This document shows, in pieces, positions 3,786-63,689 of a stretch of DNA of 64,000 nucleotides. How positions within the stretch are numbered: position 1 is the stretch's first letter; each line of letters begins with the position of its first letter. The notes below the pieces were generated by a model that was not told the DNA's origin, did not search any database, and saw nothing but the letters and a program-made list of their open reading frames with translations. Source of the DNA: an uncultured Desulfovibrio sp. (GTDB lineage: Bacteria > Desulfobacterota > Desulfovibrionia > Desulfovibrionales > Desulfovibrionaceae); contig CALBAX010000015.1 of the NCBI GenBank assembly GCA_937926875.1, positions 2,412 through 66,411 of the forward strand, written 5' to 3'. Made by a program: the position numbers and the translations under genes.

Positions 3786-6700
3786 TCACTGCCTGAAATC
3801 CACGGGCACGCGCACGCGCTGCCCGGCCTTGTTGGTGAAAAGCAACCAGCCGTGTTCCAGCCCGAACAGATAGAGCCGCCGCGTCAGGTCCACGTCCTTG
3901 CGGCAGTAGGCGGCGATGTCGTCCAGCCGCCCTTCCTGCCACCAGCGCAGGGCTTGCAGGCCGTCGGCGCTCTTGGGCTCGTCCAGGGTCGCCTGCCCCA
4001 GATTGTCCAGGGACACACGGTACTTGAGACTGTCCTGCACCCGGCGCAAGAGGTCAAGGCCCGGCAGGGCCCGCAGGTCGAAGGGCGCGAAGGCCGAGAG
4101 CACCGCGTAGTCGAAGCGGAAGGAATTGAAGCCCACCACCAGCCGCGCGGCCCGCATGCGGGCAAAAAGCTCCGGCAGGGCCTCCTGCGTATAGGTGAAG
4201 AACTCGTCGGCCCGGCTGTCATAGGCCACGGCGATGCTCACGCCCATGCGGTCGGCCCTGTTCCAGCCACCCACCTCGGCGGCGCTGCGCCGGGTCTCCA
4301 CGTCGAAGACCAGATAATGTCCCGGCGGCCTGCCCACCGCGCCCACACCGGGCTCAAGGCGGCCGGAGGCGTTGCCCGCACCACCGGCAGGGGCGGCAGG
4401 AGCCGTAGGCTCCACAGAGGCTGCCGATGCCGTGGCTCTGCCGGCCCCCTGCTCTTCCGGCAGGGAGGCCATGTGCGGGGAGGCGGCCTGCCCGTCAGCG
4501 TGTCCGGCCCCGCCGGCAGCGCCGGAGGCCGCCGCTTTCGGAACAGCGGCCGGACAGGAGGATCTTTTGTCCGCAGGCTTCCCGGCCGCGGGGAACGACC
4601 TGGCCTGCGGCCCGCCGGAATCGGCAGGAAGGCCGTCCCTGCGGCTCCCGTCGTTCCTGCCCTGCGCAGGGGCGCCCCCGGCGGACGCGGCCTCATCCCT
4701 GCCGGTGCCGCCATCCACCGTCAGGGGGCCCGGCCCGGCCTGTCCCGCAGGTACCGCCGGGGCCGTGGCGGGGGCCTGTCCGGCCCAGGCCGCCATGATG
4801 GCCGCCATGTCCGGCACGGGCGGCGGCACCGGGGCCGCGGGCTCGTCCACGGGCCGGGGCGGCAGCAGTTCCGGCGGCGGGCTGATGCGCAGGTCGGCGC
4901 ACAGGGCCTCGCCCTCGGCATCCCCGCCGGGCGCCAGCAGATCGCGGATCAGGCGCAGGGCCCCGGCCTTGCTGATGGGCCGGTTGCCCGAACCGCACTT
5001 GGGCGAATGCACGCAGGAGGGACAGCCGTCCTCGCAGGGGCAGGCCTCGATGACCGCCGCGCAGACCTCCAGCAGCTCGCGGGCATGGCCGAAGGCCTGA
5101 CGCGTCAGGCCCGCGCCCCCGGGCAGGCCGTCATAGATGAAGACGCAGGCCAGACCGGTCTGGGGATGGAGCGGGATGGAGATGCCGCCAAAGTCGTTGC
5201 GGTCGGCCATGACCAGCAGGGGCAGCATGCCGATGGCCGTATGCTCGCAGGCATGGATGGAGCCCATGAAGTGCACGAAATCCTCTTCCAGACGCTGGCG
5301 GCAGCTCTCGGGGATGACGTACCACAGGCCCTCGGTCTCGAAGACCTGCGGCGGCGCTTCCAGCGGCACGATGGTCAGCAGGCGGTTGTCGCGCGTGCTG
5401 CGCTTCTCGTAGCCGGTGATGGTGTCGATGATGCGCAGCCGCCCCCGGCAGACCACACCGCGCCCCAGGGGACGGCGCTCCAGCTCTTCGAGGATGTCCG
5501 TGCTCTTGTGGCCGCGCACCCGCGTGAACCAGTCCGTTTTGGCCTGACGGGCCCGTACCCGGCCCGCTGCCGGATCCATCTCCTCGATGACATAGCTGCG
5601 CCCCCGGTGCAGGTAGACCGCGCCCGCATGGGTCTCGCGCCAGGCCCGGAAACCGTCCACGGAACCGATGACCGTGCCTTCGCTGTCCTCGATGACGAAG
5701 CTCTGGCCCGTCCCGCGCAAGTCCACCAGCCGCTGCGGCCGCTTGCGGGCGGCCAGCCACTGGCTGCCGTCGGCAGAGAGCAGCAGGCGCCCCTGGCCCG
5801 CCAGGGCGCGCAGGGCCTCCTGCGCCGGGGCCGGGGCCAGCCAGGGGTCGCGGGCGGACAGGGGCAGCTCGGCGGCCGCGCATTCCAGATGCCGGGCAAG
5901 GATGACCTCGTTCCAGGGATTGACCACGGCCTTTTCCGCCGGGCGGCTGAAAAAGTCCTCAGGGTGGCTCATGAAATACTGGTCCAGCGCGTCCTCGCCC
6001 GCCACCAGCACCACGGCCGATTCCTGCTGTGCCCGGCCCACGCGCCCGCCCCGTTGCAGGGTGGACATGATGGTGCCCGGATAGCCCACCAGAATGCAGA
6101 CATCCAGCCCGCCGATGTCGATGCCCAGCTCCAGGGCGCTGGTGCTGACCACGGCCAGCAGTTCGCCCGAAGCCATGCGGGCTTCGATCTGGCGGCGTTC
6201 CTCGGGCAAGAAGCCCGCGCGATAGGCGGAGATGCGGCCCGCCCACGGCCCGGAAAGGCTCCCGGCCCACAGGCTGACCAGCTCGGTCATGCGGCGGGAA
6301 CGGCAGTAGACGATGGTGCGCAGCTTGCGCGCCAGCGCGGCCCGCAACAGGTCGATGGCCGCCGTGGCCGGGCTCTGGTCGGGATCGAGGAAGACGTAAT
6401 GCCGTGCGCCCTGCGGCGCGCCGGACTGGTCCACCACCACGGGCGGCTGGCGCCCGGGCAGCAGGTCGAGGCCGGAGAGCGAGGCGGCCAGCTCGCCGGG
6501 ATTGCCCACCGTGGCCGTGCAGAACACATAGGACGGCGTGGCGCCGTAATGGGCGGCCAGCCGGTTGAGGCGGCGGAACACGCCCGCCATGTGCGCGCCG
6601 AACACGCCGCGGTAGGTATGGGCCTCGTCCACCACGATATGGGAGAGCCCGGCCAGGAAGGGGGCCCACTGCTCATGGTGCGGCAGCAGGGCCAGATGCA

Positions 6701-8519: not shown

Positions 8520-8611
8520 GGCAAAAACAGGAAAAAAGCCCGCACGGGGCCTTTCCTGTATAAAAAACATCCTGGCCGCCGTCCAGACGACGGCCAGCGG
8601 GAGCAATATAT

Positions 8612-8685
8612 GGGGGAGGGAACCCCTTTTGCTTGCGGCAAAAAGGGGTTCCCTCCCCCATCCCCCCTCCTTCCCCAAAACCCGC
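8612..8685. repeat. GC-rich palindromic intergenic element, copy A (short form)
   Basis: Perfect 19-bp inverted repeat GGGGGAGGGAACCCCTTTT / AAAAGGGGTTCCCTCCCCC (8612-8630 and 8641-8659), 10-nt loop, then tail ATCCCCCCTCCTTCCCCAAAACCCGC. Confidence 0.7.
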
Positions 8686-8850
8686 ACATACAAATTCAAT
8701 AAAACCGGAATGTTCCGTGAAGGGCTGAATATTTCCCTGTATGGAGCTCTTCATCATGGGCATCTGCCATGGGCTCTCCCGGATAACGTGCGCTGGGGAA
8801 GAGGAGTTTGAGGGAAGGGGGCCCCTTCCCTCTACAAATATTTTATGACG

Positions 8851-9801
8851 CTAGAACGGCGTGCCGGTGGCCAGCATGTGTTCCAGCAGGGCGGCACGCA
8901 GCCAGCGGGCCACGGGGCCGGGACGGCCGGCGTCGGGGCCCTGGCCGATGGGGCGGCCCTCGAAGTGGCTGATGCCCACGCACAGGCTGGCGCTGGTGAA
9001 GAGCAGCATCTCGCGGGCAGTGAAGATCTCTTCGCGGCGGATGGGGCGCTCCACCACGGGCAGGCGCTGCGGTGCGATCCTGCGGGCCGCCAGCATGGAG
9101 GTGCCGGGCAGGATGCGGCGGCCTTCGGGACAGCACAGGCGGCCCTCGGCATCCACGATGCCCACATTGGCGATGGCGGCCTCGCCCAGATGGCCTTCCT
9201 CGTCAAAGGTCACAGCCACGTCCATGCCCCGCTGCCGGGCCTCGGCGGCCATGAAGACGTTGGGCAGATAGTTGGTGCTCTTGATGCGGGCCAGATATTC
9301 CTGCTTGGGCGGGATGGCGCTGGCAAAGGCCGTGAGGCCCTTCTCGTAAAAGGCTTCCGTGGGCAGTTCCTTGCGCAGGGCCACGATGTAGAGGCTGGAC
9401 CGCGGGCACTCCTCGGGCGAGACGCCGAAACCGCCGGGCCCGCGGCCCACCAGCACGCGGATGTCGCCATGATCGGTGCCCGAAGCGCGGGCCACGTCCA
9501 GGATGCGGGCGCGCAGCCCGTCCCACGAACAGGGCGGCAGCAGGGAAAGGGCGCGGCTGCCGTCGCGCAGGCGGGCCAGGTGTTCTTCAAGGGCAAAGAT
9601 GCGGCCCTCGCGGTAGCACAGGCTCTCGAACAGGGCATCGCCCCGGTGGCACATGTGGTCGTCCAGGGGCAGGAGCAGGCAGCGCGCGTCACGGCAGACG
9701 GCGTCCACACGCGCATCATAAAAGGCCAGGATCTTGTCGGCCCCGGGCCGGGGCGCAGCCATCAGGGCCGCCGTCCAGGCATCGGCATCCAGAATCTTCA
9801 T
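8851..9801 (-). CDS. class IV aminotransferase (aminodeoxychorismate lyase / branched-chain or D-amino-acid aminotransferase family)
   Basis: 317 aa from the internal ATG at 9801 (MKILDADAW...) with fold-type IV features. The upstream 58 codons of the track ORF are discarded. Confidence 0.7.
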   Translation of the reverse strand: MKILDADAWTAALMAAPRPGADKILAFYDARVDAVCRDARCLLLPLDDHMCHRGDALFESLCYREGRIFALEEHLARLRDGSRALSLLPPCSWDGLRARILDVARASGTDHGDIRVLVGRGPGGFGVSPEECPRSSLYIVALRKELPTEAFYEKGLTAFASAIPPKQEYLARIKSTNYLPNVFMAAEARQRGMDVAVTFDEEGHLGEAAIANVGIVDAEGRLCCPEGRRILPGTSMLAARRIAPQRLPVVERPIRREEIFTAREMLLFTSASLCVGISHFEGRPIGQGPDAGRPGPVARWLRAALLEHMLATGTPF

Positions 9802-9985
9802 GGCATCCCCGCGAAAGGCCGTCCCGCACGGGAGCGGCCTGTTGTGGTTGTGGATCGGGGCAGGGCCCCTGCCGGCGTCAGCCGCCGGTGAAACGTCTTT
9901 TTCTAGCACGAACGGCGGCGACGGGGAATACCTTGCCCTGCTGCCGGAGGACATGCCCGTGCCTTCGCGCCGCACGGCAAAAAGC

Positions 9986-15817: not shown

Positions 15818-17820
15818 AAATAACCATCCAGGAACTGTCCAAGTCCTTCGGCGGACGGGACATCTTCAACAATTTCTCGCTGGAAGTGGATTCCGGCGTG
15901 CGTTTGTGCGTCTGCGGCCCCAACGGGACCGGCAAGTCCACCCTCCTCCGCCTGCTGGCCGGCGTGGAGCCCGCCGACGGCGGCCGTGTCATCCTGCCCA
16001 GGGGCTGCCGCCTGGGCTTCGTGGAACAGGAGCTCTCCGAAGAGGCCCTGGACACGCCCCTGCTGACCTATGTGCTGGACGTGCTCCATGACTGGAACGA
16101 GTTCTGGGCCGAGTGGGAAGACGCCGCCCGGCAGAAGGACGAGGCGCGCCTGACCCAGCTCATGCACCGCCAGGCCGAACTGGAAGCCACCCACGGCTAC
16201 AATCCCGAACACCGCGCCAAGGCCGTGCTCTCCGGTCTGGGCTTTGCCGAAAGCAAGTGGCTGCGCACCCTGCGCGAGCTCTCCGGCGGCTGGCGCGAAC
16301 GCGCCAAACTGGCCCGCGTGCTCACCGCCGGGGCCGACGTGCTGCTGCTGGACGAACCCACCAACCATCTGGACATGGAAGCCGTGGAATGGCTGGAGTC
16401 CTTCCTCATGGACTTCAAGGGCGCCCTGGTCTTCGTGGCCCACGACCGCGTGTTCATGGACCGCGTGGGCACGCACGTGCTCTATCTGGGCCTGTCCCGC
16501 CCGGTCTTCCGCAAGGCCACCTACACCCAGTTCCTCTCCCTCCAGGAGGAATACAACGCCCAGCGTGAACGCGAGGCCAAGGCCCTGCAGGACGAGCTGG
16601 CCCGCAAGATGGCCTTCGTGGAACGCTTCCGCGCCAAGGCCACCAAGGCCCGTCAGGCCGGTTCGCGCCAGAAGATGGCCAAAAAGCTGGAAAAAGAGCT
16701 GGAAGATTACCGTCCCGAGCCCAAGCGCAAGGAACTGAACTTCACCTGGCCCGAAGCCCCGCACATGGAAAAGGTGGCCCTTGCCGCCGCCGATCTGGCC
16801 TTCCACTTCCCGGACGGCAAGCAGATGTGGCCGCCGCTGACCTTCACCCTTTACAACGGCCAGCGCGTGGCCCTGGTGGGGCACAACGGCTGCGGCAAGT
16901 CCACCCTGCTCAAGCTGCTGGCCGGGACCCTGGAACGCTGCGGCGGCAACGTGGTCACCGCGCCCCAGATGCGCCTGGGCTACTACACCCAGCACCAGAT
17001 GGACACCCTGCGCCCGGACACCACCGTGCTGGGCGAGATCCGGCGCCTGTCCGACCCCCGCACCACCGAAGAAGAGCTCATGAGCGTGCTGGGCCTCTTC
17101 CTGCTGGGGCAGGAATACTTCGACCGGCAGGTGAGCAAGCTCTCCGGCGGCGAGAAGAGCCGCCTGGTGCTGGCCAGCCTGTTCCTCAAACGCTGCAATT
17201 TCCTGCTGCTGGACGAACCCACCAACCATCTGGACCTCGAAAGCCGCGAGGCCCTGGGCACGGCCCTGCAGAAGTTCGACGGCACCCTGCTCATGGTGGC
17301 CCACGACCGCTGGCTGCTCTCGCAGGTAGGCGCCGAGGCCTGGGCCCTGGACGAGAAAGGCATCACCGTCTACCCCGACTTCGCCAGCTACGACACGGCC
17401 CGCCGCGCCGCCCTGGAGAGCGGCAGCGTCAGCCCCGGCCTCAACGCCTCCAACAAGGCCGAGAAGCCCGACAACGCGCCCCGCGCCAACCTCTCCCGCG
17501 AGGAGCAGAAGCGCCTCAAGCGCGAGCAGGCCGAACGCCGCAACGCCCTGCACAAGGAGCTCAAGCCCCTGCAGCAAAAATACGCCGCGCTGGAAGGCCA
17601 GCTGGGAAAGGCCATGGACGAGCAGTCCGACGTGGAGACCCAGCTTGCCGATCCGGCCGTCTATGCCGACGGTGCCCGCTCCACCGAGCTGCTCAAACGC
17701 TTCAACGAGCTGCGCGACCTGACCGAGCGCCTCATGGAAGACATGGCTGCCCTGGAAGAGCAGATCGCCGCCATCGAAGCCAGGCGCGCCGATATCGACA
17801 GCATGGGGGATCTGGCATGA
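15814..17820 (+). CDS. ABC-F family ATPase (two tandem ABC domains, no transmembrane domain)
   Basis: Two Walker A (GPNGTGKST, GHNGCGKST), two LSGG signatures and a C-terminal coiled-coil. GTG start at 15814 overlapping the epimerase stop. Confidence 0.85.
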   Translation: MKITIQELSKSFGGRDIFNNFSLEVDSGVRLCVCGPNGTGKSTLLRLLAGVEPADGGRVILPRGCRLGFVEQELSEEALDTPLLTYVLDVLHDWNEFWAEWEDAARQKDEARLTQLMHRQAELEATHGYNPEHRAKAVLSGLGFAESKWLRTLRELSGGWRERAKLARVLTAGADVLLLDEPTNHLDMEAVEWLESFLMDFKGALVFVAHDRVFMDRVGTHVLYLGLSRPVFRKATYTQFLSLQEEYNAQREREAKALQDELARKMAFVERFRAKATKARQAGSRQKMAKKLEKELEDYRPEPKRKELNFTWPEAPHMEKVALAAADLAFHFPDGKQMWPPLTFTLYNGQRVALVGHNGCGKSTLLKLLAGTLERCGGNVVTAPQMRLGYYTQHQMDTLRPDTTVLGEIRRLSDPRTTEEELMSVLGLFLLGQEYFDRQVSKLSGGEKSRLVLASLFLKRCNFLLLDEPTNHLDLESREALGTALQKFDGTLLMVAHDRWLLSQVGAEAWALDEKGITVYPDFASYDTARRAALESGSVSPGLNASNKAEKPDNAPRANLSREEQKRLKREQAERRNALHKELKPLQQKYAALEGQLGKAMDEQSDVETQLADPAVYADGARSTELLKRFNELRDLTERLMEDMAALEEQIAAIEARRADIDSMGDLA

Positions 17821-18218
17821 CCTCCATCGTCGTGGCCGGCGGCATCATCTGGCAGGACGACCACCTGCTGGCCGCCCTGCGCCCGCAAGGCAAGCCCATG
17901 GCCGGTTACTGGGAGTTCCCCGGCGGCAAGCTCGAACCCGGCGAGACCGCCGAACAGGCCCTTTGCCGCGAGCTGCGCGAGGAGCTGGGCATCAGCGTGC
18001 GCGCCTGCCGGCTCTGGCAGATCGTGGAGCATGATTATGCCGAGCGCGACCTGCACGTGCAGCTGCACTTCTTCCACGTCACCGCCTTCGACGGCACGCC
18101 CTGCGCCCGGGAACGTCAGGAGCTGCGCTGGGTCACGCCCTCCCAGGCTCGTGACCTGCCCTTCCTGCCCGCCGACGCCGATCTGGTGGCCGGCCTGCCC
18201 GCCTGCGCTCCGCGGTAG
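17817..18218 (+). CDS. Nudix hydrolase (MutT/8-oxo-dGTP diphosphatase-like)
   Basis: Nudix box GGKLEPGETAEQALCRELREELGI. ATG at 17817 overlaps the ABC-F stop (ATGA). Confidence 0.8.
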   Translation: MTSIVVAGGIIWQDDHLLAALRPQGKPMAGYWEFPGGKLEPGETAEQALCRELREELGISVRACRLWQIVEHDYAERDLHVQLHFFHVTAFDGTPCARERQELRWVTPSQARDLPFLPADADLVAGLPACAPR

Positions 18219-18234
18219 ATGCACATCGTTTTGT

Positions 18235-18314
18235 GGGGGAGGGGGACCCCTTTTCACTAGCGCGAAAAAAGGGGTCCCCCTCCCCCACGCCCCCACCCTT
18301 CCCCAAAACGCGCC
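18235..18314. repeat. GC-rich palindromic intergenic element, copy B (short form)
   Basis: Perfect 20-bp inverted repeat GGGGGAGGGGGACCCCTTTT / AAAAGGGGTCCCCCTCCCCC with 12-nt loop, then tail ACGCCCCCACCCTTCCCCAAAACGCGCC. Confidence 0.7.
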
Positions 18315-18320
18315 TTCACG

Positions 18321-18358
18321 GCCTGTGTCCCTGCGGGGACACAGGCTTTTTGTTTTTT
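18321..18358 (+). terminator. Rho-independent terminator of the pyrK...nudix operon
   Basis: GCCTGTGTCCC-tgc-GGGACACAGGC stem followed by TTTTTGTTTTTT. Confidence 0.8.
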
Positions 18359-18672
18359 GGGGGCCTTGTTTCCCCAATGTTCTAAAAAACATATTGCTTA
18401 CTATACTGCGGGTGCCCTCGATCCGCACAAGCAAAGGGACATCTGCCTCCATTGGGCAACCTTGGAGAGCTCCCAACGCCGCGCGCTCCAGCCTGCCCCG
18501 ATAGTTCCCGTCCTGTTCCGGGCCATTGCGTCCGGGCCGGACGGCGGCTAAGATGTCCCCTTGTCCCCAAAGCCTCGCCCGGCGCCAGCGCACGATGCCA
18601 TGCCCTGTGTCCGCCAGACGGGGACCTGCCATACCGGCCTGAAGAAAAGTTTTTGGAAGGGTTGGGGGGTCA

Positions 18673-18746
18673 GGGGGGAAGGGGGACCTTTTTGGAAAAA
18701 GGTCCCCCTTCCCCCCGCGCATCCCTCCCCGCCCTTCCTGCAAAGG
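18673..18746. repeat. GC-rich palindromic intergenic element, copy C (short form)
   Basis: Perfect 21-bp inverted repeat GGGGGGAAGGGGGACCTTTTT-GG-AAAAAGGTCCCCCTTCCCCCC, then tail GCGCATCCCTCCCCGCCCTTCCTGCAAAGG. It ends 8 nt before the pepP ATG. Confidence 0.7.
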
Positions 18747-38200: not shown

Positions 38201-38773
38201 TCCTGCCGTGACAGCCTGGCCCGCATGAAGCTCGACGAGCAGTTCCCGCAGCTGGAACAGAAGGACGTGAGCCAGATCGTCCTGCCCCTGCTCCAGCACG
38301 AGAGCATGGAAGCCCCGGTGGCCCCCGGCACCAGCGTGCTCTACCACGCGGCCTGCCACTGCGAATGGGCGGGCGTGCCCACCCTCAAGGGACAGGCCCA
38401 GCTCACCGGCGCCCTGGAACAGCTCTGCAAGGTCAAGGTCAGCACCATCCCCGGCTGCTGCGGCGAATCCGGCATGGGCGCCGTGACCTCCCCCACCATC
38501 TACAACCTGTTGCGCGCCCGCAAAAAGGAACGCCTGGCCCAGGCTTTCGAGCCCCAGCCCCAGACCGGCGCCTGCTACGCCGGGCCCATCCTGGTGGGCT
38601 GCCCGTCCTGCAAGATCGGCATCGCCCGCTGCCTCATCCAGCTCAAGGAAAAGCACCCCGTGCTGCATGTGCTGGAATGGCTGGCCAACCAGGTGGACGG
38701 AGAGGACCGCCGCCAGCGCTTCCGCCGCCGGGCCAACGAGACCCGCGGCGACGTGCGCATCGTCCAGAGCTAA
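35207..38773 (+). CDS. YdiJ-like multidomain FAD-linked oxidase / Fe-S oxidoreductase (DUF3683-FAD_binding_4-4Fe4S-CCG domains)
   Basis: 1188 aa. FAD-binding PCMH domain (ALIPRGGGSGMTGGAVP), FAD-oxidase C-terminal domain, two ferredoxin-like CxxCxxC(x)3CP motifs and two cysteine-rich CCG motifs (CCG...C and GCCGESG). Confidence 0.8.
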   Translation: MAHKGPHISISPDYVVNRILRINIDDFAEWPESVRHLAIAIAEELFLVAYNPFINVETVRNSVHARFERESMALAHYFANAIGEGITMFWSAYEAERSFREELISALRNILPGECILSSPSALVASATDATDLRMELPLLVVEPDSAEQVAALVKLANDMKFALIPRGGGSGMTGGAVPARKRTVIVSLTRLTKIGPIDLEDMTVTVEAGAITQNVIKAVDAAGALFSVDPASKQASSIGGNVSENAGGPSAFEYGTTLDNLLWWRMVTPTGEIISVERENHPRHKILPEETAVFVVKDISGGVRNVIHLRGDEIRLPGLGKDVTNKALGGLPGMQKEGVDGIITEACFIIHPKPRFKRVMVLEFFGRSMHPAAVVVRELVGLRNRIRQEGDYAHLSALEEFNAKYVQAIDYKRKSQKYEGLPISVIILQVDGDDPYLLDKCVNDIVCVVEEQDNVDIIVAQDDKEGERFWEDRHRLSAIAKRTSGFKLNEDVVIPMDRIPDFALFLEQLNLECTAQAYRYALQEVGRLPGFPMEDKEFNREFSFASKVASGDNPQAELSDTELWKRAEAFLAGMGQKYAHLDKKISKIRDYMEASRIVVASHMHAGDGNCHVNIPVNSNDAHMLEEAEETAARVMAECQEMGGEVSGEHGIGITKISFLGKSKMDALRAFKERVDPRDVMNPAKLVHRELPVRPFTFSFNRLINDIHASGLPDKEKLISLLSTVQVCTRCGKCKQVCSMCYPERSMQYHPRNKNMVLGMLLEAVYYSQVNKGTIDDNLLRWLRDLVEHCTACGRCLANCPVKIPSGEVALTLRSLLEHENAGGHPIKKRALEWLVQDVSSRVPKAAKMASLGQKVQNKLLGMVPSMWKQRMQSPIFAGSGPKMGYTNLYESLRLHRGSVFAPREVTPGMPCVLYFPGCGGSLFYDRIGLAAIMLLLHTGHAVAVPPRHLCCGYPLLAAGMDTEYEDNMAQNRQYLASMLRNLVKQGFDVRYLATACGSCRDSLARMKLDEQFPQLEQKDVSQIVLPLLQHESMEAPVAPGTSVLYHAACHCEWAGVPTLKGQAQLTGALEQLCKVKVSTIPGCCGESGMGAVTSPTIYNLLRARKKERLAQAFEPQPQTGACYAGPILVGCPSCKIGIARCLIQLKEKHPVLHVLEWLANQVDGEDRRQRFRRRANETRGDVRIVQS

Positions 38774-38793
38774 ACGAGAGATGACACTGATAT

Positions 38794-38924
38794 GAGAGGG
38801 GAAGGGGACGTTATCGCTGCTGTCGCTGTCCGTCGCTTCCTCCATGGCGCCGGACACGGCCCTGCGGGCCACCTCCGGCGGCGTCCCCCTCCTCTCCCAT
38901 GCTCCCCCATCCTTCGAAAAACGC
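38794..38924. repeat. GC-rich palindromic intergenic element, copy F (long form with internal core)
   Basis: Arms GAGAGGGGAAGGGGACG ... CGTCCCCCTCCTCTC enclosing a 70-nt core homologous to copy E (shared CACGGCCCTGCGGGCC and GCTGTCGCTGTCCGTCGCTTCCT). Tail CCATGCTCCCCCATCCTTCGAAAAACGC. Confidence 0.65.
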
Positions 38925-39002: not shown

Positions 39003-39506
39003 ATGGAAAGAAAGGAAGTCACCCGCATGCTGGTGGGTGTCCGGCCCCAGGGGCAGGGCACCATCCGCGTCGTGGGCGCCAAGCTGCACGGCATCGTGGT
39101 CACGGAATCCAAACTCAACTACCACGGCTCCATCACCATCGACACCGACATCCTCGAAGCAGCCAGCCTGCTGCCGCTGGAATACGTCTACATCTGGAAC
39201 AAGCACAGCGGCTCCCGCATCGAGACCTATGTGCTGCCCGGCCCGCGCGGCAGCGGCGTGGTCTGCCTCAACGGCGCCGCGGCCCGTACCTGCCAGGTGG
39301 GCGACGAGATCATCGTGGCCTCTTCCCGCGAGATCCCCGTCAGCGACTATCACGAGGGCTTCTCCTGCCGCGTGCTGACCTTCGACCAGAACGGCGGGCT
39401 GCCCAACCGCGTGGCCGAAAAGCTGGAATACCGCGTGGCCGCCAAGGACGACGGCACGGAATTCGTCATCATGGACATGGGCACCGGTCAGGAATGGATC
39501 GGCTAG
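39003..39506 (+). CDS. panD: aspartate 1-decarboxylase proenzyme
   Basis: [21 protein letters not shown] (Gly-Ser self-cleavage site) and VCLNGAAAR motifs. The start is uncertain: ATG at 39003 or 39027, both with an AGGA-type RBS. Confidence 0.85.
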
Positions 39507-39523
39507 ACAGGCTGTTTTGACAT

Positions 39524-39612
39524 GAAAGGGAAGGGAGCTTGACCGCCGCTGCCGCTCCTGTGGCTTCCGGCGGGAAAACCTCCCCTTCCCCCTCATGCTC
39601 CCCCATCCTGCA
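39524..39612. repeat. GC-rich palindromic intergenic element, copy G (intermediate form)
   Basis: Arms GAAAGGGAAGGGAG ... CTCCCCTTCCCCCTC with a shortened core (GCTGCCGCTCCTGTGGCTTCC). Tail ATGCTCCCCCATCCTGCAAACGGCGCGC is nearly identical to the tail of copy F. Confidence 0.6.
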
Positions 39613-40204
39613 AACGGCGCGCACAAGGGACCTGGCGTTTCCTCTGCGCCGCCCCGCTGATGGCCACCGCCCCCCCATGACGGCAGGACACCGCGGACAC
39701 GGCCAGCCTCCCCTTCGTGCCTTCCCCATCTGCCCCGCTCCCCACAGCACAGGAGCCCACCGGGCATTGCCCCGCTCTTTTCCCACCGGGCCCGCTCCCC
39801 CGCAGCACCGGGGGACCATCCGGACGCGCGCAGTCTGCCGTGCCACATCACCTGCCCATCCTTCTGCAAAAAGCGCGTTGGGGGAGGATGGGGGCTCGGG
39901 GGGAAGGTGGGCCCCCTGTGCGCCAGCCAAGGGTCCCTTCTTCCCCCGAAACCATCCATGTCTGCCCTCCTGTCCGCACTTGCGAAAGCAGCAACGGATT
40001 TTTATACTTGCATGTTGGCCGGGCGACCGCATGGCATGCCGCCATGTCCCGCGGCCCGGGGCCGAAAACGCCCGTCACGGCGCGAGAGCGCGCGTTCCTC
40101 CCCTGTTCCGGCAGGAGCCATGCACGCGGGGAAACGCTGTCCACGCGCCTGTCCGGGCCCGTTTTTCACTATCTCACCGCTCCAGCCGAGCAGCAGAGGA
40201 AGTT

Positions 40205-49659: not shown

Positions 49660-51018
49660 CTACACGACGAAACGGCCGTCCCGGGCCACCTCGTCCCGTA
49701 CGATCTTGAACAGCACGGGGCTCAGCAGCAGGACGCCGGTAAGGTTGGGCAGCGCCATAAGGGCGTTGCAGGTATCGGCCAGGAGCCACACGGCATCCAG
49801 GGCCAGGACGGACCCCACGCCCACCGCCAGGCAGTAGACCAGGCGGAAGACCATCTGGGCCCGGTCGCCGAACAGGTAGATGGCGCAGCGTTCACCGTAC
49901 ACGCACCAGCCGAGGATGGTGGTGAAGGCGAAGAAGCTCAGGCAGATGGTGACCGCGAACTGGCCCACACCAGGCAGCGCCTGTTCGAAGGCCATGGAGG
50001 TCATCATGCTGGCGGCGGAGGAACCGGCCGTCCAGGTACCCGTCACCAGGATCACGAAGCCCGTCATGCTGCAAACGATGATGGTATCGATGAAGACATC
50101 GAGCATGCCGATGGAGGCCTGCACCAGGGGAGTCTCGGCCGTGGAGGCCGCGTGGGCCATGGGAGCGGTGCCCAGGCCGGCTTCATTGGAGAAGATGCCG
50201 CGGGCCATGCCCTGGCGGATGGCCATCATCACCGTGGCCCCCACGAAGCCGCCGGTGGCCGCCGTGGGCTGGAAGGCATCGGAGATCACCCACCAGAACA
50301 CGGAGGGGACCTTTTCGATGTTCATGCCGATGATGAGCAGGCACATGAAGACATACATGATGGCCATGAAGGGCACGATCTTGCCCGCCACGGCACCGAT
50401 GCGGCGCACGCCGCCCAGCAGCACGGCCACGCACAGGCCCACCAGGATCAGGCCGCACAGCCACGCGGGCAGGCCGAAGGTGCCGGAGATGTTGTCAGTG
50501 ATGGCCTTGGCCTGCACCATGCCGCCCGTACCGATACAGGCGCAGATGCCGAACACGGCAAAACAGGTGCCCAGCCAGATCCATTTGGGGCCCAGGCCGT
50601 TCTTGATGAAGTACATGGCACCGCCCACCCAGTTGCCGGCGGGGGTCTTTTCACGGAAATGCACGGACAGCAGCACTTCGCTGAACTTGGTCATCATGCC
50701 CACCAGGGCCGTGACCCACATCCAGAACAGGGCGCCGGGGCCGCCCACGGCGATGGCCAGGGCCACGCCCACCACGTTACCGGTACCGATATCTGCGGCC
50801 AGAGCAGTCATGAGGGCATTCCACGGCGAGATCTCGCCATGTTCGGACTGATGGGACCGCCCCTGCCACAGGCACTTGTAAGCTCGTACCCAGTTGCGGA
50901 AGGAGAAAAAGCGCAGCGCGATATTCAAATAGATGCCCGTGCCTACCAGCAGCACCAGCATGACCGGACACCACAAAAAGCCGTTAAAGGTTTCCAAAAG
51001 CTTGTACAGCTGCTCCAC
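49660..51018 (-). CDS. alanine/glycine:cation symporter (AGCS family)
   Basis: GTG start at 51018 (VEQLYKLLETFNGFLW...) matches canonical AGCS N-termini. GAGGA RBS. The upstream 34 codons of the track ORF are discarded. Confidence 0.8.
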   Translation of the reverse strand: MEQLYKLLETFNGFLWCPVMLVLLVGTGIYLNIALRFFSFRNWVRAYKCLWQGRSHQSEHGEISPWNALMTALAADIGTGNVVGVALAIAVGGPGALFWMWVTALVGMMTKFSEVLLSVHFREKTPAGNWVGGAMYFIKNGLGPKWIWLGTCFAVFGICACIGTGGMVQAKAITDNISGTFGLPAWLCGLILVGLCVAVLLGGVRRIGAVAGKIVPFMAIMYVFMCLLIIGMNIEKVPSVFWWVISDAFQPTAATGGFVGATVMMAIRQGMARGIFSNEAGLGTAPMAHAASTAETPLVQASIGMLDVFIDTIIVCSMTGFVILVTGTWTAGSSAASMMTSMAFEQALPGVGQFAVTICLSFFAFTTILGWCVYGERCAIYLFGDRAQMVFRLVYCLAVGVGSVLALDAVWLLADTCNALMALPNLTGVLLLSPVLFKIVRDEVARDGRFVV

Positions 51019-51120
51019 TTTTCCATCCTCCCGGGGCTCGCCCCTGTCCTCTCGTTGATGTCTCCCGCCCGGACAGCCCTCTGCATCCGGCCGGAATATC
51101 CGTGCCACAGCGGATGGCAC

Positions 51121-51501
51121 GAAAACACGTTAGCACGCTTTCAGCATCGCTGCAAAGGGCCGGACTCTGCTTCATGCCGATTTTACACGAAAAAATGCGC
51201 ACCTTGTTACGCAATGCACATAGTCCGACCATGACTGTTCACCCAAACAGTCAAAACTCTTTCCATACACTTTAAGAAATAACGAACAAGCCAAACAAAT
51301 GAACATCATAAAACTGCATATAAAGCAAAATATACTTTAATTTTTTGTGTTACTGCGTCAAAAGTACATCGTTGATTAAAGTCAATATACGACCAGACCT
51401 CTCTGCCATCAATGTGACAAAGCTTTTCATCCTGCACATCCCCGGCAGCTTCAGGCCATCACATTTTTGTGATACCTCCGGGAAAATTTCCTGAAAAATT
51501 T
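51121..51501. other. AT-rich non-coding tract marking the left edge of a low-GC island
   Basis: 380 bp with markedly lower GC than the flanks (A/T runs, TTTTTAAAAAATTTTTT) and no supportable ORF. Confidence 0.5.
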
Positions 51502-52464
51502 TTAAAAAATTTTTTCCTGCGGCCTTTCGGGGACATTTTCCAGGCCGATACGATGGCGGACAACATACTGGGGCCGTCCCTTGACCTCCTGGAACACACG
51601 CCCAAGGTATTCCCCCACGATCCCCAGAGAACACAATATCAGGCCGCCAAGGCACAACGTCACCACCATCAGTGAGGCATACCCCGGGACATCCACGCCC
51701 CAGACAAGCGTTTTGAAGATGAGGTACCCGGCATAGGAGAATCCGGCCAAAGCCACTATCATCCCCAGATAGCTCCACAAGCGCAACGGCAGCGTGCTGA
51801 AGGAAGTGATGCCGTCCAAGGCAAAGTTCCACAGCTTCCACCCCGGCCATTTGCTGTTGCCGGCCACACGGGCCGGGCGTTCGTACTCCACGATGGCGCT
51901 GCGGAAACCAACCCAGCCGTACAGGCCCTTGGTAAAGCGCACACGTTCGGGCAAGGCATTCAGGGCATCCACCACCATGCGATCCATGAGCCGGTAATCC
52001 CCGGCATTGGGGACGACGCGCCCCTTGGTCAACCGGTTGAACAGCCGGTAGAACAGGCCGGCGCTCACACGCTTTGCCCAGCTGTCCGCATCACGCCGGG
52101 AACGTACGCCTATGACCGTTTCATAGCCCTGCTCCCACAGGCGCAGGAACTGTTTCAACAGAGCCGGCGGATCCTGCAGATCCACATCCATGGGCACGAC
52201 AGCATCTCCGCGGGCCGCCTGCAACCCCGCGGACAGAGCCAGTTCCTTGCCGAAATTGCGCGAGAAGGAGATGCCGCGGACCCGCGGATCCCGGGCATGG
52301 AGCCCTTCGATGATCTCCAGAGTCCTGTCCGTACTGCCATCATCGACGAACAGGATCTCCAGCTCATAGGGCTCGTCACGCAAAACTTCCTGCACGGCCT
52401 CGTAAAACAGCGGGATGGCCTCTTCTTCATCAAGGACCGGAACGATCAGGGAAAGCAGTTTCAT
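51502..52464 (-). CDS. polyprenyl-phosphate glycosyltransferase, GT2 (GtrB/ArnC/DPM1-like) with two C-terminal transmembrane helices
   Basis: LIVPVLDEEEAIP, DDGSTD and DVDLQDP (DxD) motifs, plus C-terminal hydrophobic helices (LMVVTLCLGGLILCSLGIVGEYLGRVF). GAGGAG RBS. Confidence 0.8.
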   Translation of the reverse strand: MKLLSLIVPVLDEEEAIPLFYEAVQEVLRDEPYELEILFVDDGSTDRTLEIIEGLHARDPRVRGISFSRNFGKELALSAGLQAARGDAVVPMDVDLQDPPALLKQFLRLWEQGYETVIGVRSRRDADSWAKRVSAGLFYRLFNRLTKGRVVPNAGDYRLMDRMVVDALNALPERVRFTKGLYGWVGFRSAIVEYERPARVAGNSKWPGWKLWNFALDGITSFSTLPLRLWSYLGMIVALAGFSYAGYLIFKTLVWGVDVPGYASLMVVTLCLGGLILCSLGIVGEYLGRVFQEVKGRPQYVVRHRIGLENVPERPQEKIF

Positions 52465-52555
52465 CTATTGTCTCCTCACATGTCTGCGCCTATAGTGTCT
52501 TTGACACGGACAGCACGATGATACGATGACCTGTCCATAACAACCATTTTTCTAT

Positions 52556-53731
52556 ATGCGCCAGTCTACAGACAATTTCCTTGCTCTGAGCCTGTTCTTG
52601 CTCTTTTTTTCAAACTTCATCTATTCCGTTGTCTATTTCTATAACGACTTCCCCAATGGTTATGCATGGGGAGAACTTTTCATAAAATATACTGACGGCT
52701 TCGTACGCAGGGGGCTGACAGGCTACCTGCTGTATCATGCTGCGAGCTTTTTGAATGTCCATATCGTGTGGACGGCCTGCATATCGCTTGTTTACATCCT
52801 GTTTTTCATAAAGGCATATTCTTTCATCAGGGAAAACGTAAGCTATTTCTTTACGATAGTCCTGTTCTTCTCTCCGGCCCTGCTGGCATTCCTCGTCAAG
52901 GATCCTGACCTCTTCGGCCGCAAGGACATCCTCTTCCTGGCCCTGCTGGCCATCATCATGGCCAAGGCCAGTACCATCATCATCTCACCGGGAAAGCGGG
53001 GAAAGGCCTGGCTGACCATCGCCCTGTGCTATCTTGTGGCCTTCCTTATCCACGAGATCACACTGTTCTTTGCCCTGCTGCCGGCCCTGCTCGTCCTGCG
53101 CGCCAATGAAAAGCATACGCTGGCCACCGTGGCGGCCATCGGTGCCGTCTTTCTGTTGAGTGCCCTTTTTGCCGTCCATTTCCAGGGGACAGCCGCCATG
53201 CGCGAAGCCATGTTCCACGACTGGCAGGCCCTCATCCCGGATTTCACCACACAGGGAGGCATGCGCTTCATCGGCAAGGATCTTTCTTCCCACGCCACGC
53301 CCTTCCCCTGGCTCCAGAATGGCAACCTGCGCCTTTCCTACATCGCCGCCTGGCTGCTGGCCCTGCTCCCCCTGGGGCTGCTCATGTACGTCTACCGCTT
53401 CCATACGGTCTGCACGGACGTCCTGGGCCGGGGCATGACCTGGCTCGCCTATGGATGCGCCATATTCCCTGCCGTGATCCTGACCTTCATGATCAACGAC
53501 TTTGGCCGGACGATCTCATACAGCTGTCTGATGTTCCTGTTCTTTGCCCTGCATATCCTGCGCATCTATCGCGACCGCCACGGGGATCTGCCGGTCCGTC
53601 CCTGCTTCACACAGCTGCATTTTGCGAATACCCCTGTCCTCATCGGCAGCCTGTATTACCTGCTCTGCTGGAAGCTCTACCATTATGTCCCGCTGAGCAT
53701 GGAACCCCGCATCATTTCCCTGTCGTTCTGA
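52556..53731 (+). CDS. polytopic membrane protein; candidate cognate GT-C/GtrC-like glycosyl-transfer enzyme. I do not recognise a family.
   Basis: 391 aa, at least 9 transmembrane helices. The first 350 nt are strikingly AT-rich relative to the genome. Divergent from the GT2 gene with a 91-bp spacer. Confidence 0.6.
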   Translation: MRQSTDNFLALSLFLLFFSNFIYSVVYFYNDFPNGYAWGELFIKYTDGFVRRGLTGYLLYHAASFLNVHIVWTACISLVYILFFIKAYSFIRENVSYFFTIVLFFSPALLAFLVKDPDLFGRKDILFLALLAIIMAKASTIIISPGKRGKAWLTIALCYLVAFLIHEITLFFALLPALLVLRANEKHTLATVAAIGAVFLLSALFAVHFQGTAAMREAMFHDWQALIPDFTTQGGMRFIGKDLSSHATPFPWLQNGNLRLSYIAAWLLALLPLGLLMYVYRFHTVCTDVLGRGMTWLAYGCAIFPAVILTFMINDFGRTISYSCLMFLFFALHILRIYRDRHGDLPVRPCFTQLHFANTPVLIGSLYYLLCWKLYHYVPLSMEPRIISLSF

Positions 53732-53885
53732 TCCTCTCCCGACGATCACGGGAAGGCGCGCCACGCGGCGACAGCTGCCGCACAACAGAGGAATGCCCCT
53801 TCCCCGGCATCCGTCCGCACCGTCTCCAAAGCGGTCACCCACGGATCTTTCCCCGGATTTCCCTGCCTGTACAGGGGAAACGTAC

Positions 53886-53916
53886 AAAAAAGGGCAGCCC
53901 GAAGGCTGCCCTTTAT
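53886..53916. terminator. Bidirectional rho-independent terminator between the convergent membrane-protein gene and purB-pyrE
   Basis: AAAAAAGGGCAGCC-cgaa-GGCTGCCCTTTAT. Confidence 0.7.
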
Positions 53917-54022
53917 CGATCAGTGTATCCCCGGTCCGGGACAGGTCTGGAAAAGAACCCCGCTGAGGCGGCCGTCCCGTCTCCTCCCCGGGACATGCCG
54001 GGAACGCCCAGAGGGAACGGCC

Positions 54023-62263: not shown

Positions 62264-62500
62264 ATGAAGTATTTGATCATGGAAGATTTTTCCGGCCAGC
62301 CCGTGCCCTTCATCTTTCCCCGCCGCGTGGACCACGCCGACATGCGCGACCAGCTCCCTTACGGGCAGGTCATCTCCGCCGGTGTGGTGGAACACGGCCC
62401 CGAGGGCTTCGTCTGCCACGGCGGCAACGCCGAACTCAATGTCAAAGCCCGGCCAGAGGAAGACGCGGCCATCATCACCGAGGCCCTGCGCGTCCGGTAA
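62264..62500 (+). CDS. small hypothetical protein (78 aa)
   Basis: AGGAAGG RBS 6 nt before the ATG; no recognisable family. Confidence 0.4.
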   Translation: MKYLIMEDFSGQPVPFIFPRRVDHADMRDQLPYGQVISAGVVEHGPEGFVCHGGNAELNVKARPEEDAAIITEALRVR

Positions 62501-62530
62501 GGCCATATCTGCGAAGGACGGGGAAGGATC

Positions 62531-62668
62531 TTTGAGGGGGACCCCCTCATCCCTGCTGTCGATGCCCGTAGCTTCCTGCGTCGCAACGGGCACGGCCCTG
62601 CGGGCCGCCATCCGGTCGCTGCTAGCGCGAGAGGGGTTCCCCCCTCAAACTCCCCTTCCCCAGCGCGC
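62531..62668. repeat. GC-rich palindromic intergenic element, copy E (long form with internal core)
   Basis: Arms TTTGAGGGGGACCCCCTC ... GAGGGGTTCCCCCCTCAAA enclose an 80-nt core homologous to copy F. Tail CTCCCCTTCCCCAGCGCGC. Confidence 0.65.
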
Positions 62669-62726
62669 TTTCATAACAGGACATCCCTCCAGCTCATGGG
62701 AGGGCATATCCCTGTCAAAACCAAAC

Positions 62727-62768
62727 GCGCCCGCGAGAACTCCGTCTCGCGGGCGCGTTTTATTTTTT
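62727..62768. terminator. Bidirectional rho-independent terminator between convergent genes
   Basis: GCGCCCGCGAGA-actccg-TCTCGCGGGCGC followed by GTTTTATTTTTT (and AAACC upstream). Confidence 0.8.
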
Positions 62769-62912
62769 CCGGGGAAAATATCCTCCCCCTTTATCAGGGC
62801 GCCGGGGAAGGCCTTCGTGTACCGGCAGCAACCGGGGGCCAAGAGGCCCTACCCGTCACGTGATGCAGAAAGCTGCGGACATCGGCAGCAGGCCCCTCAA
62901 AAAAACATCATC

Positions 62913-63689
62913 TCAGCGATCAAAAAAGCCGCTGACCGTCCCTTCCACTATCCCGGCACCACCGAAGCCGTGGGCATCCAGCACCTGCATCACCTGCGGC
63001 CACAGGCCGTCAGGCAGGACAGCCGCCTGCAGGACAGGGCCCGGCGTCAGGCGCAGACGGAAATCCCCCAGGCCGGGCAAGGCGGCCAGGTCGGCTTCGG
63101 CAGCGGCCAGACGGGCCAGCAGGGCCGGTTCAGGATGCATGCCGTACGCCAGCCGGGTCAGCAGGCAGGGCCGGGCGGCCTGCTGCGGATCGTCCAGTCC
63201 CCAGGCCGCGCCCAGATCGCGCAATTCCTGTTTGCGGAGCCCGGCCAGCGCCAGGGGCGAGAGCACGCCCGCCTCGCGCACGGCCCGCTGTCCGGGCCGG
63301 AAGGCGGTCAGGTCATCGGCATTGCTGCCGTCACAGAGGATGCGGCAGCCGCCCGCGGCGGCCAGGGCTTCGCGCAGACGGCGCATGAGGGCCCGCTTGC
63401 AGGCATAGCAGCGCTCCCGGCTGTTCACCGCCACTTCAGGCAGGGGAAGGGGATCGTGCCGCACTTCCAGCAGGGGCAGTCCCTGTGCCCGGGCCCAGCG
63501 CCGCGCCGCCGCGCTCTCGGCCTGCGGCACATGCGGCCCCGTGGCGTGCAGGGCCAGCACGTCGCAGCCCGCACGCCGCAGGGCGAAACAGAGGAAACGG
63601 CTGTCCAGCCCGCCGGAAAAGGCCACGGCCAGCGGCCAGTGCCGCAGCACGGGCAGCAGGGCCTGCCAGCGGGCTTCGGGGGCTACCAC
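62913..63689 (-). CDS. PP-loop ATP pyrophosphatase, LarE-like (TIGR00268 family)
   Basis: SGGLDS PP-loop and CLLTRLAYG (cf. LarE CSVSSRFPYG). Start uncertain: GTG at 63689, 1 nt after the hisF stop. Confidence 0.65.

Follow-up and report, generated by a model that had tools for sequence, protein, structure and literature searches.

What kind of element is E, the hairpin-prone sequence at about positions 62,531 to 62,668 of a 64,000-nucleotide (nt) stretch of DNA (contig CALBAX010000015.1, assembly GCA_937926875.1) from an uncultured Desulfovibrio sp.? The whole stretch is called the window here. In E, a G-rich and a C-rich arm enclose a core cassette, B, and the preliminary description of the locus proposed either a decaying MITE (miniature inverted-repeat transposable element) or a core encoding a small structured RNA. 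By the analysis, E is probably an almost complete member of a non-coding family of mosaic interspersed repeats that is specific to Desulfovibrio piger and close gut Desulfovibrio. It is likely best described as a modular, BOX-like repeat whose core is optional and can be amplified, and not just as a MITE in decay or as a new RNA gene. The family is undescribed, its kind an ordinary one among the interspersed repeats of bacteria, and a literature search on repeats of D. piger found no paper. The window has a G+C content of about 65%, and its last 4.3 kb are 95.6% identical to D. piger ATCC 29098 (L030). Loci and contigs used for comparison are given by L numbers, and the positions of all features are collected in Table 1.

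Copies of the element in the window

The sequence at positions 62531-62668 reads as it had been described. The cores of E and of a second copy, F, which had been called homologous from the letters alone, showed 82% identity over 61 nt (blastn E = 1e-12). A covariance model of the core, built from family members, scored E at 97.7 bits, F at 58.1 bits and a third copy, E', which the preliminary description had missed, at 52.0 bits, with the next best match at 16 bits; the corresponding E-values were 2e-20 to 5e-10 for the full cores and 0.07 for the next match. The resemblance of E and F is far beyond chance, because nothing else in the window scored above 16 bits, and these three are the only full cores in the 64 kb. 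The left arm of E' is mostly gone through an 8-nt deletion, and more canonical alleles occur in other strains.

Five hairpin-only copies were found, a form already described before, with loops of about 2-22 nt; the sequence of these loops is that of the linker on the flanks of B in full copies. The loop caCTAGCGCGAa of copy A matches gCTAGCGCGAg in E, and CTAGCGCGA is the loop of copy A and also a linker in E. The self-palindromic arms reported for E are partly an accident of this strain: the left arm of ATCC 29098, GAGGGGGGAACCCCTC, is the exact complement of the right arm GAGGGGTTCCCCCCTC, and the window's GAGGGGGACCCCCTC is a mutated form of it.

Extent and anatomy of the repeat family

An exact search for 19 fixed core bases was made in one genome per species, and its copy numbers are lower bounds. 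It returned more than 117 stretches among the matches listed from species-representative genomes, of which at least about 105 belonged to D. piger and its close gut relatives (strain ET209, Candidatus D. intestinigallinarum, D. gallistercoris, D. intestinavium and several metagenome-assembled genomes). Copies were present in at least 12 assemblies, and each of the five best-represented assemblies held at least 13-21 loci. A dozen matches to the core pattern in unrelated taxa proved to be coincidences within coding sequences. The covariance model gave at least 123 core hits in 100 sources; 13 of the 123 were cut by the end of a contig or stored stretch, and many scan matches lay at contig ends, which is expected of a dispersed repeat. 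BLAST of a full element against plasmid and GenBank phage sequences gave no match.

The unit runs from the stop codon (TAG or TAA) of a co-oriented upstream gene through a leader of about 30 nt (e.g. TAGGGCCTGTTAACACTATTCGTAAGTTGTT), the G-rich arm, zero to at least three tandem copies of B and the C-rich arm to a C-rich tail, CCCCCCatCCCttCCCCagcgcgcTTT, with a short T-run. At least three subtypes of the G-rich arm occur, ending in GGGAAACCCCTC, ending in GGAAACCCCCTT, and GAGGGGGAAGGAACCCCTTTG. B has 68-71 nt, two small hairpins, the consensus CTGCTGTCGATGCCCGTAGCTTCCTTCGTCGCAACGGGCACGGCCTGCGGCCGCCATTCGGTCGCTGCT and a second loop variant, B2. Tandem arrays of B with a 68-nt period were found in L025 (2.6 copies), L088 (at least 2.8) and L043 (2), and B without arms in L039, L080 and L148. 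A protein-coding core was rejected, as the 68-nt period is not a multiple of three and all frames show non-synonymous differences between E and F; prophage L148 is the only case of a core within an open reading frame (ORF). The AT-rich DNA past the truncated cores of L082, L092 and L111 was considered as an insertion sequence (IS) or intron, and in L082 it turned out to be the 3' flank of tyrS.

Three further arrangements were seen around the family. Many elements carry an additional optional module in the right arm, a hairpin of about 35-45 nt (GGCCCAGCCTTTCC...GGAAAGGCGTTCCCGTAGT) inserted in either orientation (L019:~1270-1330(-), L097:~1120-1185(-), L004, L011, L033, L040 and L041). A second repeat family, with a length of about 150 nt (AGAGCGTTTCACCTTTGAAAAAGGTGAAACGC...GTTTCAAACTGAAAATGCTCTAG), is often found right beside the elements, and its CTCTAG end replaces the gene's stop at the left edge (L105:1230-1650, L011:6100-6260, and the flanks of many loci, L003, L017, L054, L057, L060 and L075 among them). 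Palindromic variants (L029:6-93, L097:5921-5996, L025:631-709) consist of the left half, that is the arm and the first ~40 nt of the core, joined to the reverse complement of a left half, which gives a long perfect hairpin, CTGCTGTCGATGCCCG...CGGGCATCGACAGCAG.

Strain polymorphism and turnover

Ten metagenomic D. piger contigs encode an identical 78-amino-acid (aa) protein next to E, yet four states of the E locus were found. B is present in the window, L118, L121, L122, L124, L125 and ATCC 29098, and absent from L119, L126 and L127, where GAGGGGGGAACCCCT and CTGCTAGCGCGAGAGGGGTTCCCCCCTC are left joined. L120 has a hairpin-only form with the loop reverse-complemented, and in L123 the hairpin has collapsed to one arm through a deletion between CCCCTC repeats. 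One gain or one loss explains the distribution of B, because the core-less strains form one clade by their flanks.

At the G locus, L131 and L136 carry 27 nt more of the 3' half of the core (ACGGGCACGGCTCTGCGAGCCGC), so the window's G is an internal deletion and its shortened core had been read correctly. F is fixed and slowly diverging in the ten strains examined, and both F and E' are point-mutated relics. The E core differs from that of L118 at about 4 of 75 nt, about the rate of the non-coding flanks in an alignment read by eye, and these comparisons gave no sign of purifying selection on the E core in place within D. piger. Sister species carry different subtypes or hairpin-only forms at orthologous gene ends, and turnover is therefore high. 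Strains thus differ by gain or loss of the whole B block, by flipped loops and collapsed hairpins, and by internal deletions of the core.

The flip of the loop between the arms was seen in L120 against L119 and also at window positions 39899-39947 (CTGCTAGCGCGAG vs CTCACGCTAGCAG), which suggests that the inverted arms recombine or that the template switches between them. Copy A has a divergent allele with compensating arm changes in other strains. When the mutT locus (window 18219-18500) was compared with L138-L144, two allele classes were seen that were about 35% different and also differed by indels; the differences covered the hairpin element and ~140 nt past the terminator, while mutT and the terminator stem were nearly identical. 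It looks as though the element region of these alleles was replaced by recombination.

The earlier interpretation of the nested series as MITE decay stood in part. Long, shortened and hairpin-only forms do belong to one family, and decay by internal deletion was seen. The family is not a classical MITE, since the copies resemble each other for about 30 nt outside each arm and the true ends reached in this way are not inverted repeats of each other. The edges read TA(G/A) on the left and, in many copies, TTT(T)A-T on the right. Nor is it decay alone, since the core behaves as a module with tandem arrays, armless copies and a present/absent allele.

Position relative to genes

A co-oriented coding ORF ended at most 110 nt upstream in 57 of the 96 core-bearing elements with enough upstream sequence, and in only 3 was all the coding found there on the opposite strand, with gene orientation taken from a crude caller based on G+C at third codon positions (GC3). 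Similarity between copies starts exactly at the upstream stop codon, and the preceding codons are unrelated. The adjacent stops were TAG in 33 cases, TAA in 17 and TGA in 3, against a background of 156, 100 and 107 in other parts of these loci. Orthologous genes with and without the element end at the same codon, as in L068 (TAG) and L036 (TGA) and in L060 and L019 past ahcY. Six copies in the window, namely E, F, G, E' and those at 18233 and 8785, lie directly past a stop codon.

TAG was also the commonest stop in Desulfovibrio loci at genes that do not adjoin an element with a core (156 of 363 gene calls), and hairpin-only copies may supply many stop codons, by counts from the same crude caller.

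The right end of the element rarely abuts a gene. The idea that it supplies a Shine-Dalgarno (SD) sequence and ATG to a downstream gene was rejected, as 48 of 53 copies had no coding region within 150-330 nt. The flanking genes are syntenic housekeeping genes, including ruvX-mltG, hisF, panD, mutT, ahcY and tyrS. E and E' lie in two separate 3' untranslated regions (UTRs), because a distinct terminator (62723-62775) stands between the convergent genes. The elements stand between the stop codon and the true terminator, and from this position they are therefore predicted to be transcribed within the 3' UTR.

Secondary structure of the core

The RNA fold of E had a free energy of -79 kcal/mol (z = -4.1), and the other strand and DNA parameters gave similar results. 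In this fold the stem made by the arms is long and bears the two small hairpins of B at its tip. Left and right arms of the same element paired better than shuffled partners (17.4 vs 13.4, permutation p < 2e-4).

The preliminary description had called for a covariation test of the core, and both stems do keep their pairing through compensatory changes. Among 102 distinct copies, 98% of the cells in the core stems were paired, against 26-44% in slid controls, in an alignment that was fitted to the model and so leans towards structure. Double changes occurred in 5 of 12 core stem pairs (13 cells), a level reached by none of 500 shuffles. Independent examples are GTCCGT/ACGGAC in F and several B2 copies, CGGTC/GACCG in L008, CAGCC/GGCTG in L056 and GCCTGT/ACAGGC in L111. 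The core hairpins are thus conserved as hairpins. Neither strand is favoured for structure, because G.U (12) and C.A (16) mismatches are balanced.

B as an independent small-RNA gene, the second of the original proposals, was not supported. Besides the balance of G.U and C.A, no promoter-like site was found near E, and copies decay or are lost in place. Rfam 15 gave no matches at the gathering score in the window and four copy-rich loci, and no family for the element at the gathering score or at E <= 10; matches around E were sub-threshold, the strongest on the terminator hairpin. Because the core is lost, decays and is amplified in tandem, its hairpins fit propagation at the DNA level, being either needed for it or made by it, rather than an RNA gene.

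Comparison with known interspersed repeats

The closest likeness was to BOX of Streptococcus pneumoniae and S. suis, in which paired end modules enclose a self-folding boxB that is absent, single or tandem (boxA-boxB(n)-boxC), length at a locus varies between strains, and the stop codon of 36 genes is encoded by the repeat (PMC3049150). The Desulfovibrio repeat likewise has base-pairing end modules around a separate middle module present in 0 (hairpin-only, L119), 1 (E) or 2 to at least 2.8 copies with the 68-nt period, has strain-dependent length at a locus, and often supplies the upstream stop codon. It differs in phylum, in its G+C of about 70%, and in a stronger link to stop codon and orientation (57 vs 3). 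Terminal inverted repeats, target duplications and a candidate IS partner have been reported for BOX (PMC3049150), whereas the true termini of the Desulfovibrio repeat are not inverted repeats. The resemblance is one of architecture only, because homology is unlikely given the G+C content and the different phylum.

Correia elements of Neisseria also have inverted-repeat arms around a conserved core, full (~150 bp) and internally deleted (~105 bp) forms, and presence/absence between strains, with 26-bp terminal inverted repeats, TA insertion and an IHF-binding core (PMC2649163). The Desulfovibrio repeat shares the arms around a core, the full and internally deleted forms and the strain presence/absence. 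The 26-bp terminal repeats, TA insertion and IHF-binding core were not found in it, and tandem core arrays and the fixed link to a stop codon are its own.

An integron attC site was rejected, since the leader GTTAACA has C instead of a purine at the sixth base, the right end has no GTT core, and the neighbours are the syntenic housekeeping genes named above.

ERIC/IRU elements of enterobacteria are imperfect palindromes of ~127 bp in transcribed intergenic regions, with short copies made by internal deletion and long copies that carry ~70-bp insertions at fixed internal sites. Both the internally deleted short copies and the ~70-bp inserted forms have counterparts in the Desulfovibrio repeat, in unrelated taxa. 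We know of no report of tandem inserts or of a stop-codon boundary in ERIC.

Proposed mode of spread and points against a modular repeat

The BOX-like repeat may spread, or have spread, as DNA through some trans-acting activity or through recombination between copies, and would have multiplied in several of the sister species. The window's copies with a core, F, E' and G, would be ageing relics in D. piger proper. The hairpin-prone DNA would itself drive rearrangements, through slippage, through switches of template and through recombination of one arm with the other. In the cell the repeat probably acts as REP (repetitive extragenic palindromic)/BIME, BOX and Correia sequences do, namely as a strong 3'-UTR stem-loop that could act on mRNA 3'-end stability or read-through. 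Both the mode of spread and the 3'-UTR effect are proposed with less confidence than the classification.

Several points weigh against a modular repeat of this kind. No target-site duplication and no clean, high-identity pair of empty and filled sites was found (L068 and L036 are only 85% identical), and no transposase or other mobilising gene was identified; none of the loci examined contained a repeated long segment with a transposase. The event at E can be read as either insertion or deletion of B, because the microhomology at the junction is only 1 nt. The orientation counts depend on the crude GC3-based caller. Between species that differ by 12-20% in the flanking genes the core hardly varies, and this requires selection on B itself, continuing conversion or a master copy that is conserved. 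Finally, the hairpin-1 loop is kept in phages within a different stem, and a purely 'selfish repeat' does not explain this.

A hairpin shared with phages

The last of these points belongs to the rival that survives best, in which the core, or hairpin 1 with its loop GTAGCTTCCTTCGTCGCAAC, is a functional recognition element, that is an RNA or single-stranded DNA hairpin bound by a host or phage protein. Such a hairpin might act on translation through its anti-Shine-Dalgarno-like CUUCCUU loop, or serve in processing or anti-termination, and the genomic copies would be kept for that role. This is judged unlikely, and it is mainly the sharing of the loop with a phage element that leaves it a real share of the probability.

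The core pattern and the 20-nt loop GTAGCTTCCTTCGTCGCAAC were also found in IMG/VR viral contigs, and the loop is exact in 78 host and 19 viral copies. In 10 of 13 viral stretches the loop is preceded by TTGCTGTC and stands in a different stem, CTTCAtCC/GGcTGAAG; one copy in L160 has CTTTAtCC/GGcTAAAG around the same loop. It mostly ends a conserved intergenic phage element of ~115 nt, which occurs up to four times per contig and sometimes right before an SD sequence and ATG. Other hairpins of this phage element, including the first, covary (GCCCGC/GCGGGC vs AGCAAGC/GCTTGCT). Its 5' motifs were absent from ~0.9 Mb of host loci, and it had no Rfam match.

The Mu-like prophage L148/L149 carries a near-consensus armless core (L148:1561-1638(-)) at the 5' end of, or inside, a protease I gene (PF10123). 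About 20 codons are covered by the core, ahead of the Pfam domain, whose first residue is 55.

The conservation of the loop in two different stems suggests that it has a sequence-specific partner. The host copies add to this that the stems keep pairing through compensatory changes, that the copies are strongly co-oriented with transcription, and that the core consensus is nearly identical across species. Against a function in the host stand the presence or absence of the core among strains with identical neighbouring genes, the decay of F, E' and G in place, the tandem arrays, the balance of G.U and C.A and the missing Rfam family; the whole 16-nt loop of hairpin 1 is moreover replaced by 3-4 nt in some copies (L057, L104). 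A more specific form, rated slightly lower again, is that hairpin 1 is a recognition hairpin defined by (C/T)TGCTGTC and the loop GTAGCTTCCTTCGTCGCAAC, with a stem whose sequence is free. It would be common to the host repeats and to the structured ~115-nt intergenic element of Mu-like and other Desulfovibrio (pro)phages, and one phage or host protein would act on it in host and phage copies alike. Candidates would be a nuclease, a recombinase or an RNA-binding regulator. If true, this could explain the invariance of the core across species and the start exactly at TAG/TAA stops, and the host copies would be landing pads, decoys or regulatory sites and not junk.

Four minor observations were made on these contigs. 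The phage element reads GGTAGCCGTT, a hairpin, TTACGGATAGCGACAGCG...GCTGTC...GTAAC...TTGCTGTCTTCATCC-GTAGCTTCCTTCGTCGCAAC-GGCTGAAGC. An ATG inside the L148 core could be the start codon of protease I, and in L148/L149 an antisense copy of hairpin 1 lies past the stop of the neighbouring Phage_tail_S gene. L152:7178-7293(-) is a tandem array of at least three copies of a 48-nt unit, CTCTGCTGTCGCCATCCGTAGCTTCCTTCGTCGCAACGGCTAGCGCAT, that holds the hairpin-1 part of the core only. L160, a viral contig with four hairpin-1 elements, also carries a Type II hammerhead ribozyme at 4739-4804(-) (Rfam RF02276, 63 bits vs a gathering score of 37).

Other rival explanations

A REPIN-RAYT system, in which the arms or core hairpins are REPs copied by a single-copy REP-associated tyrosine transposase (RAYT), has little probability. 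The repeat is like REP/BIME and REPINs in its inverted, hairpin-forming, extragenic, mosaic and high-copy modules in 3' UTRs and in its near-invariant 'master' across vertically related species, and CT dinucleotides flank the core. The GTAG and CGTC tetranucleotides described as tags of REP sequences (PMC3733652) do occur in hairpin 1, but inside its loop and not 5' of a palindrome, and the arms begin with G-runs and have no such tag. The units, with their cassette of 68-71 nt, are also far longer and more mosaic than REPINs. No ORF with the HUH...Y motif of RAYT/IS200 was found in ~1 Mb, which is a small part of each genome, and tblastn with IS200 TnpA and E. coli RayT sequences had no hit in 1.01 Mb; the weak best match, in L058, is a response regulator with two REC domains. 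The main text of two REP/RAYT surveys does not mention Desulfovibrio.

That the similarity of E and F is a local duplication, or chance in GC-rich DNA, has practically no probability left, for although the window holds three full cores only, the wider search found more than 100 copies in at least 12 assemblies, and the E-values of the full cores lie far below that of the next match.

Significance of the repeat family

In D. piger, the main sulfate reducer of the human gut, the intergenic DNA is crowded with an undescribed mosaic repeat that breaks assemblies, makes 3' UTRs differ in length from strain to strain and provides many genes with their stop codons. For annotation, the copies should be taken neither as small-RNA genes nor as CRISPR-like arrays, and the family offers markers for strain typing. 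It is also a second system, remote from pneumococcal BOX, in which the spread of modular hairpin repeats and their effects on mRNA ends can be studied. The link to the phage hairpin is the one thread that could make the repeat more than ordinary.

Features of the window

Table 1. Elements, parts of elements and related features, with positions in the window unless an L number is given
Feature	Position	Strand	Remarks
TAA stop codon of 78-aa ORF (62264-62500)	62498-62500	+	Left edge of E; family similarity begins at the upstream stop
Leader ('U-like' module) of E	62501-62533	+	Outer G-run GGGGAAGG (62520-62527) pairs with the tail in the minimum-free-energy fold
Left G-rich arm of E, GAGGGGGACCCCCTC	62534-62548	+	From sequence and fold
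Core cassette B of E, 71 nt	62553-62623	+	Covariance model (97.7 bits) and fold
B hairpin 1 of E, TGCCCGT/ACGGGCA	62563-62592	+	16-nt loop AGCTTCCTGCGTCGCA
B hairpin 2 of E, CGGCCC-TGC-GGGCCG	62593-62607	+	
Right C-rich arm of E, GAGGGGTTCCCCCCTC	62631-62646	+	Fold; arm covariation
C-rich tail of E, aaactCCCCTTCCCCagcgcgcttt	62647-62671	+	Tail kept in 58 family copies
Bidirectional intrinsic terminator between convergent genes	62723-62775	.	16-pair stem, then T-run; distinct from the elements
E', degenerate full-length copy	62783-62912	-	Core 62820-62895; blastn and 52.0 bits; 14 nt past the TGA stop (62913-62915) of a 273-aa minus-strand ORF
F, full-length diverged copy	38771-38924	+	TAA stop 38771-38773; left arm 38794-38809; core 38817-38885, 58.1 bits; right arm 38883-38896; tail to 38924; fixed in 10 strains; directly 3' of a 1188-aa FAD/Fe-S oxidoreductase gene
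G, copy with internally deleted core	39504-39620	+	panD TAG stop 39504-39506; hairpin 39527-39594 (left arm 39527-39537, residual core 39538-39579, right arm 39580-39594); then tail
Hairpin-only copy	8610-8661	+	Loop GCTTGCGGC, the junction left without B in the 'TTTG' subtype
Hairpin-only copy	8785-8835	-	Directly past the TAG stop of the minus-strand gene 8851-9975
Hairpin-only copy A	18233-18288	+	14 nt past the TAG stop of mutT (17817-18218); loop caCTAGCGCGAa
Hairpin-only copy	18673-18716	+	2-nt loop; upstream of a gene starting at 18755
Hairpin-only copy	39899-39947	+	Flipped loop, similar to the usual linker in reverse complement; compare L120
Phage element, ~115 nt	L148:1888-2062; L151; L155-L160	+ (L148)	IMG/VR viral contigs of Desulfovibrio-like (pro)phages

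A 463-aa ORF upstream of copy A was rejected as a gene, the real gene there being the 133-aa mutT. Between G and the next hairpin, window positions 39595-39890 hold ~300 nt of C-rich non-coding DNA that is highly variable (L131/L136 vs the rest). The 78-aa ORF, which follows mltG, had no Pfam family, and an identical protein was found in 17,910 blocks of the public assembly index; its product is therefore a very conserved small protein of unknown function. Window positions 50001-54000 have a G+C of 0.57, compared with about 0.65 elsewhere, and may be foreign or mobile DNA.

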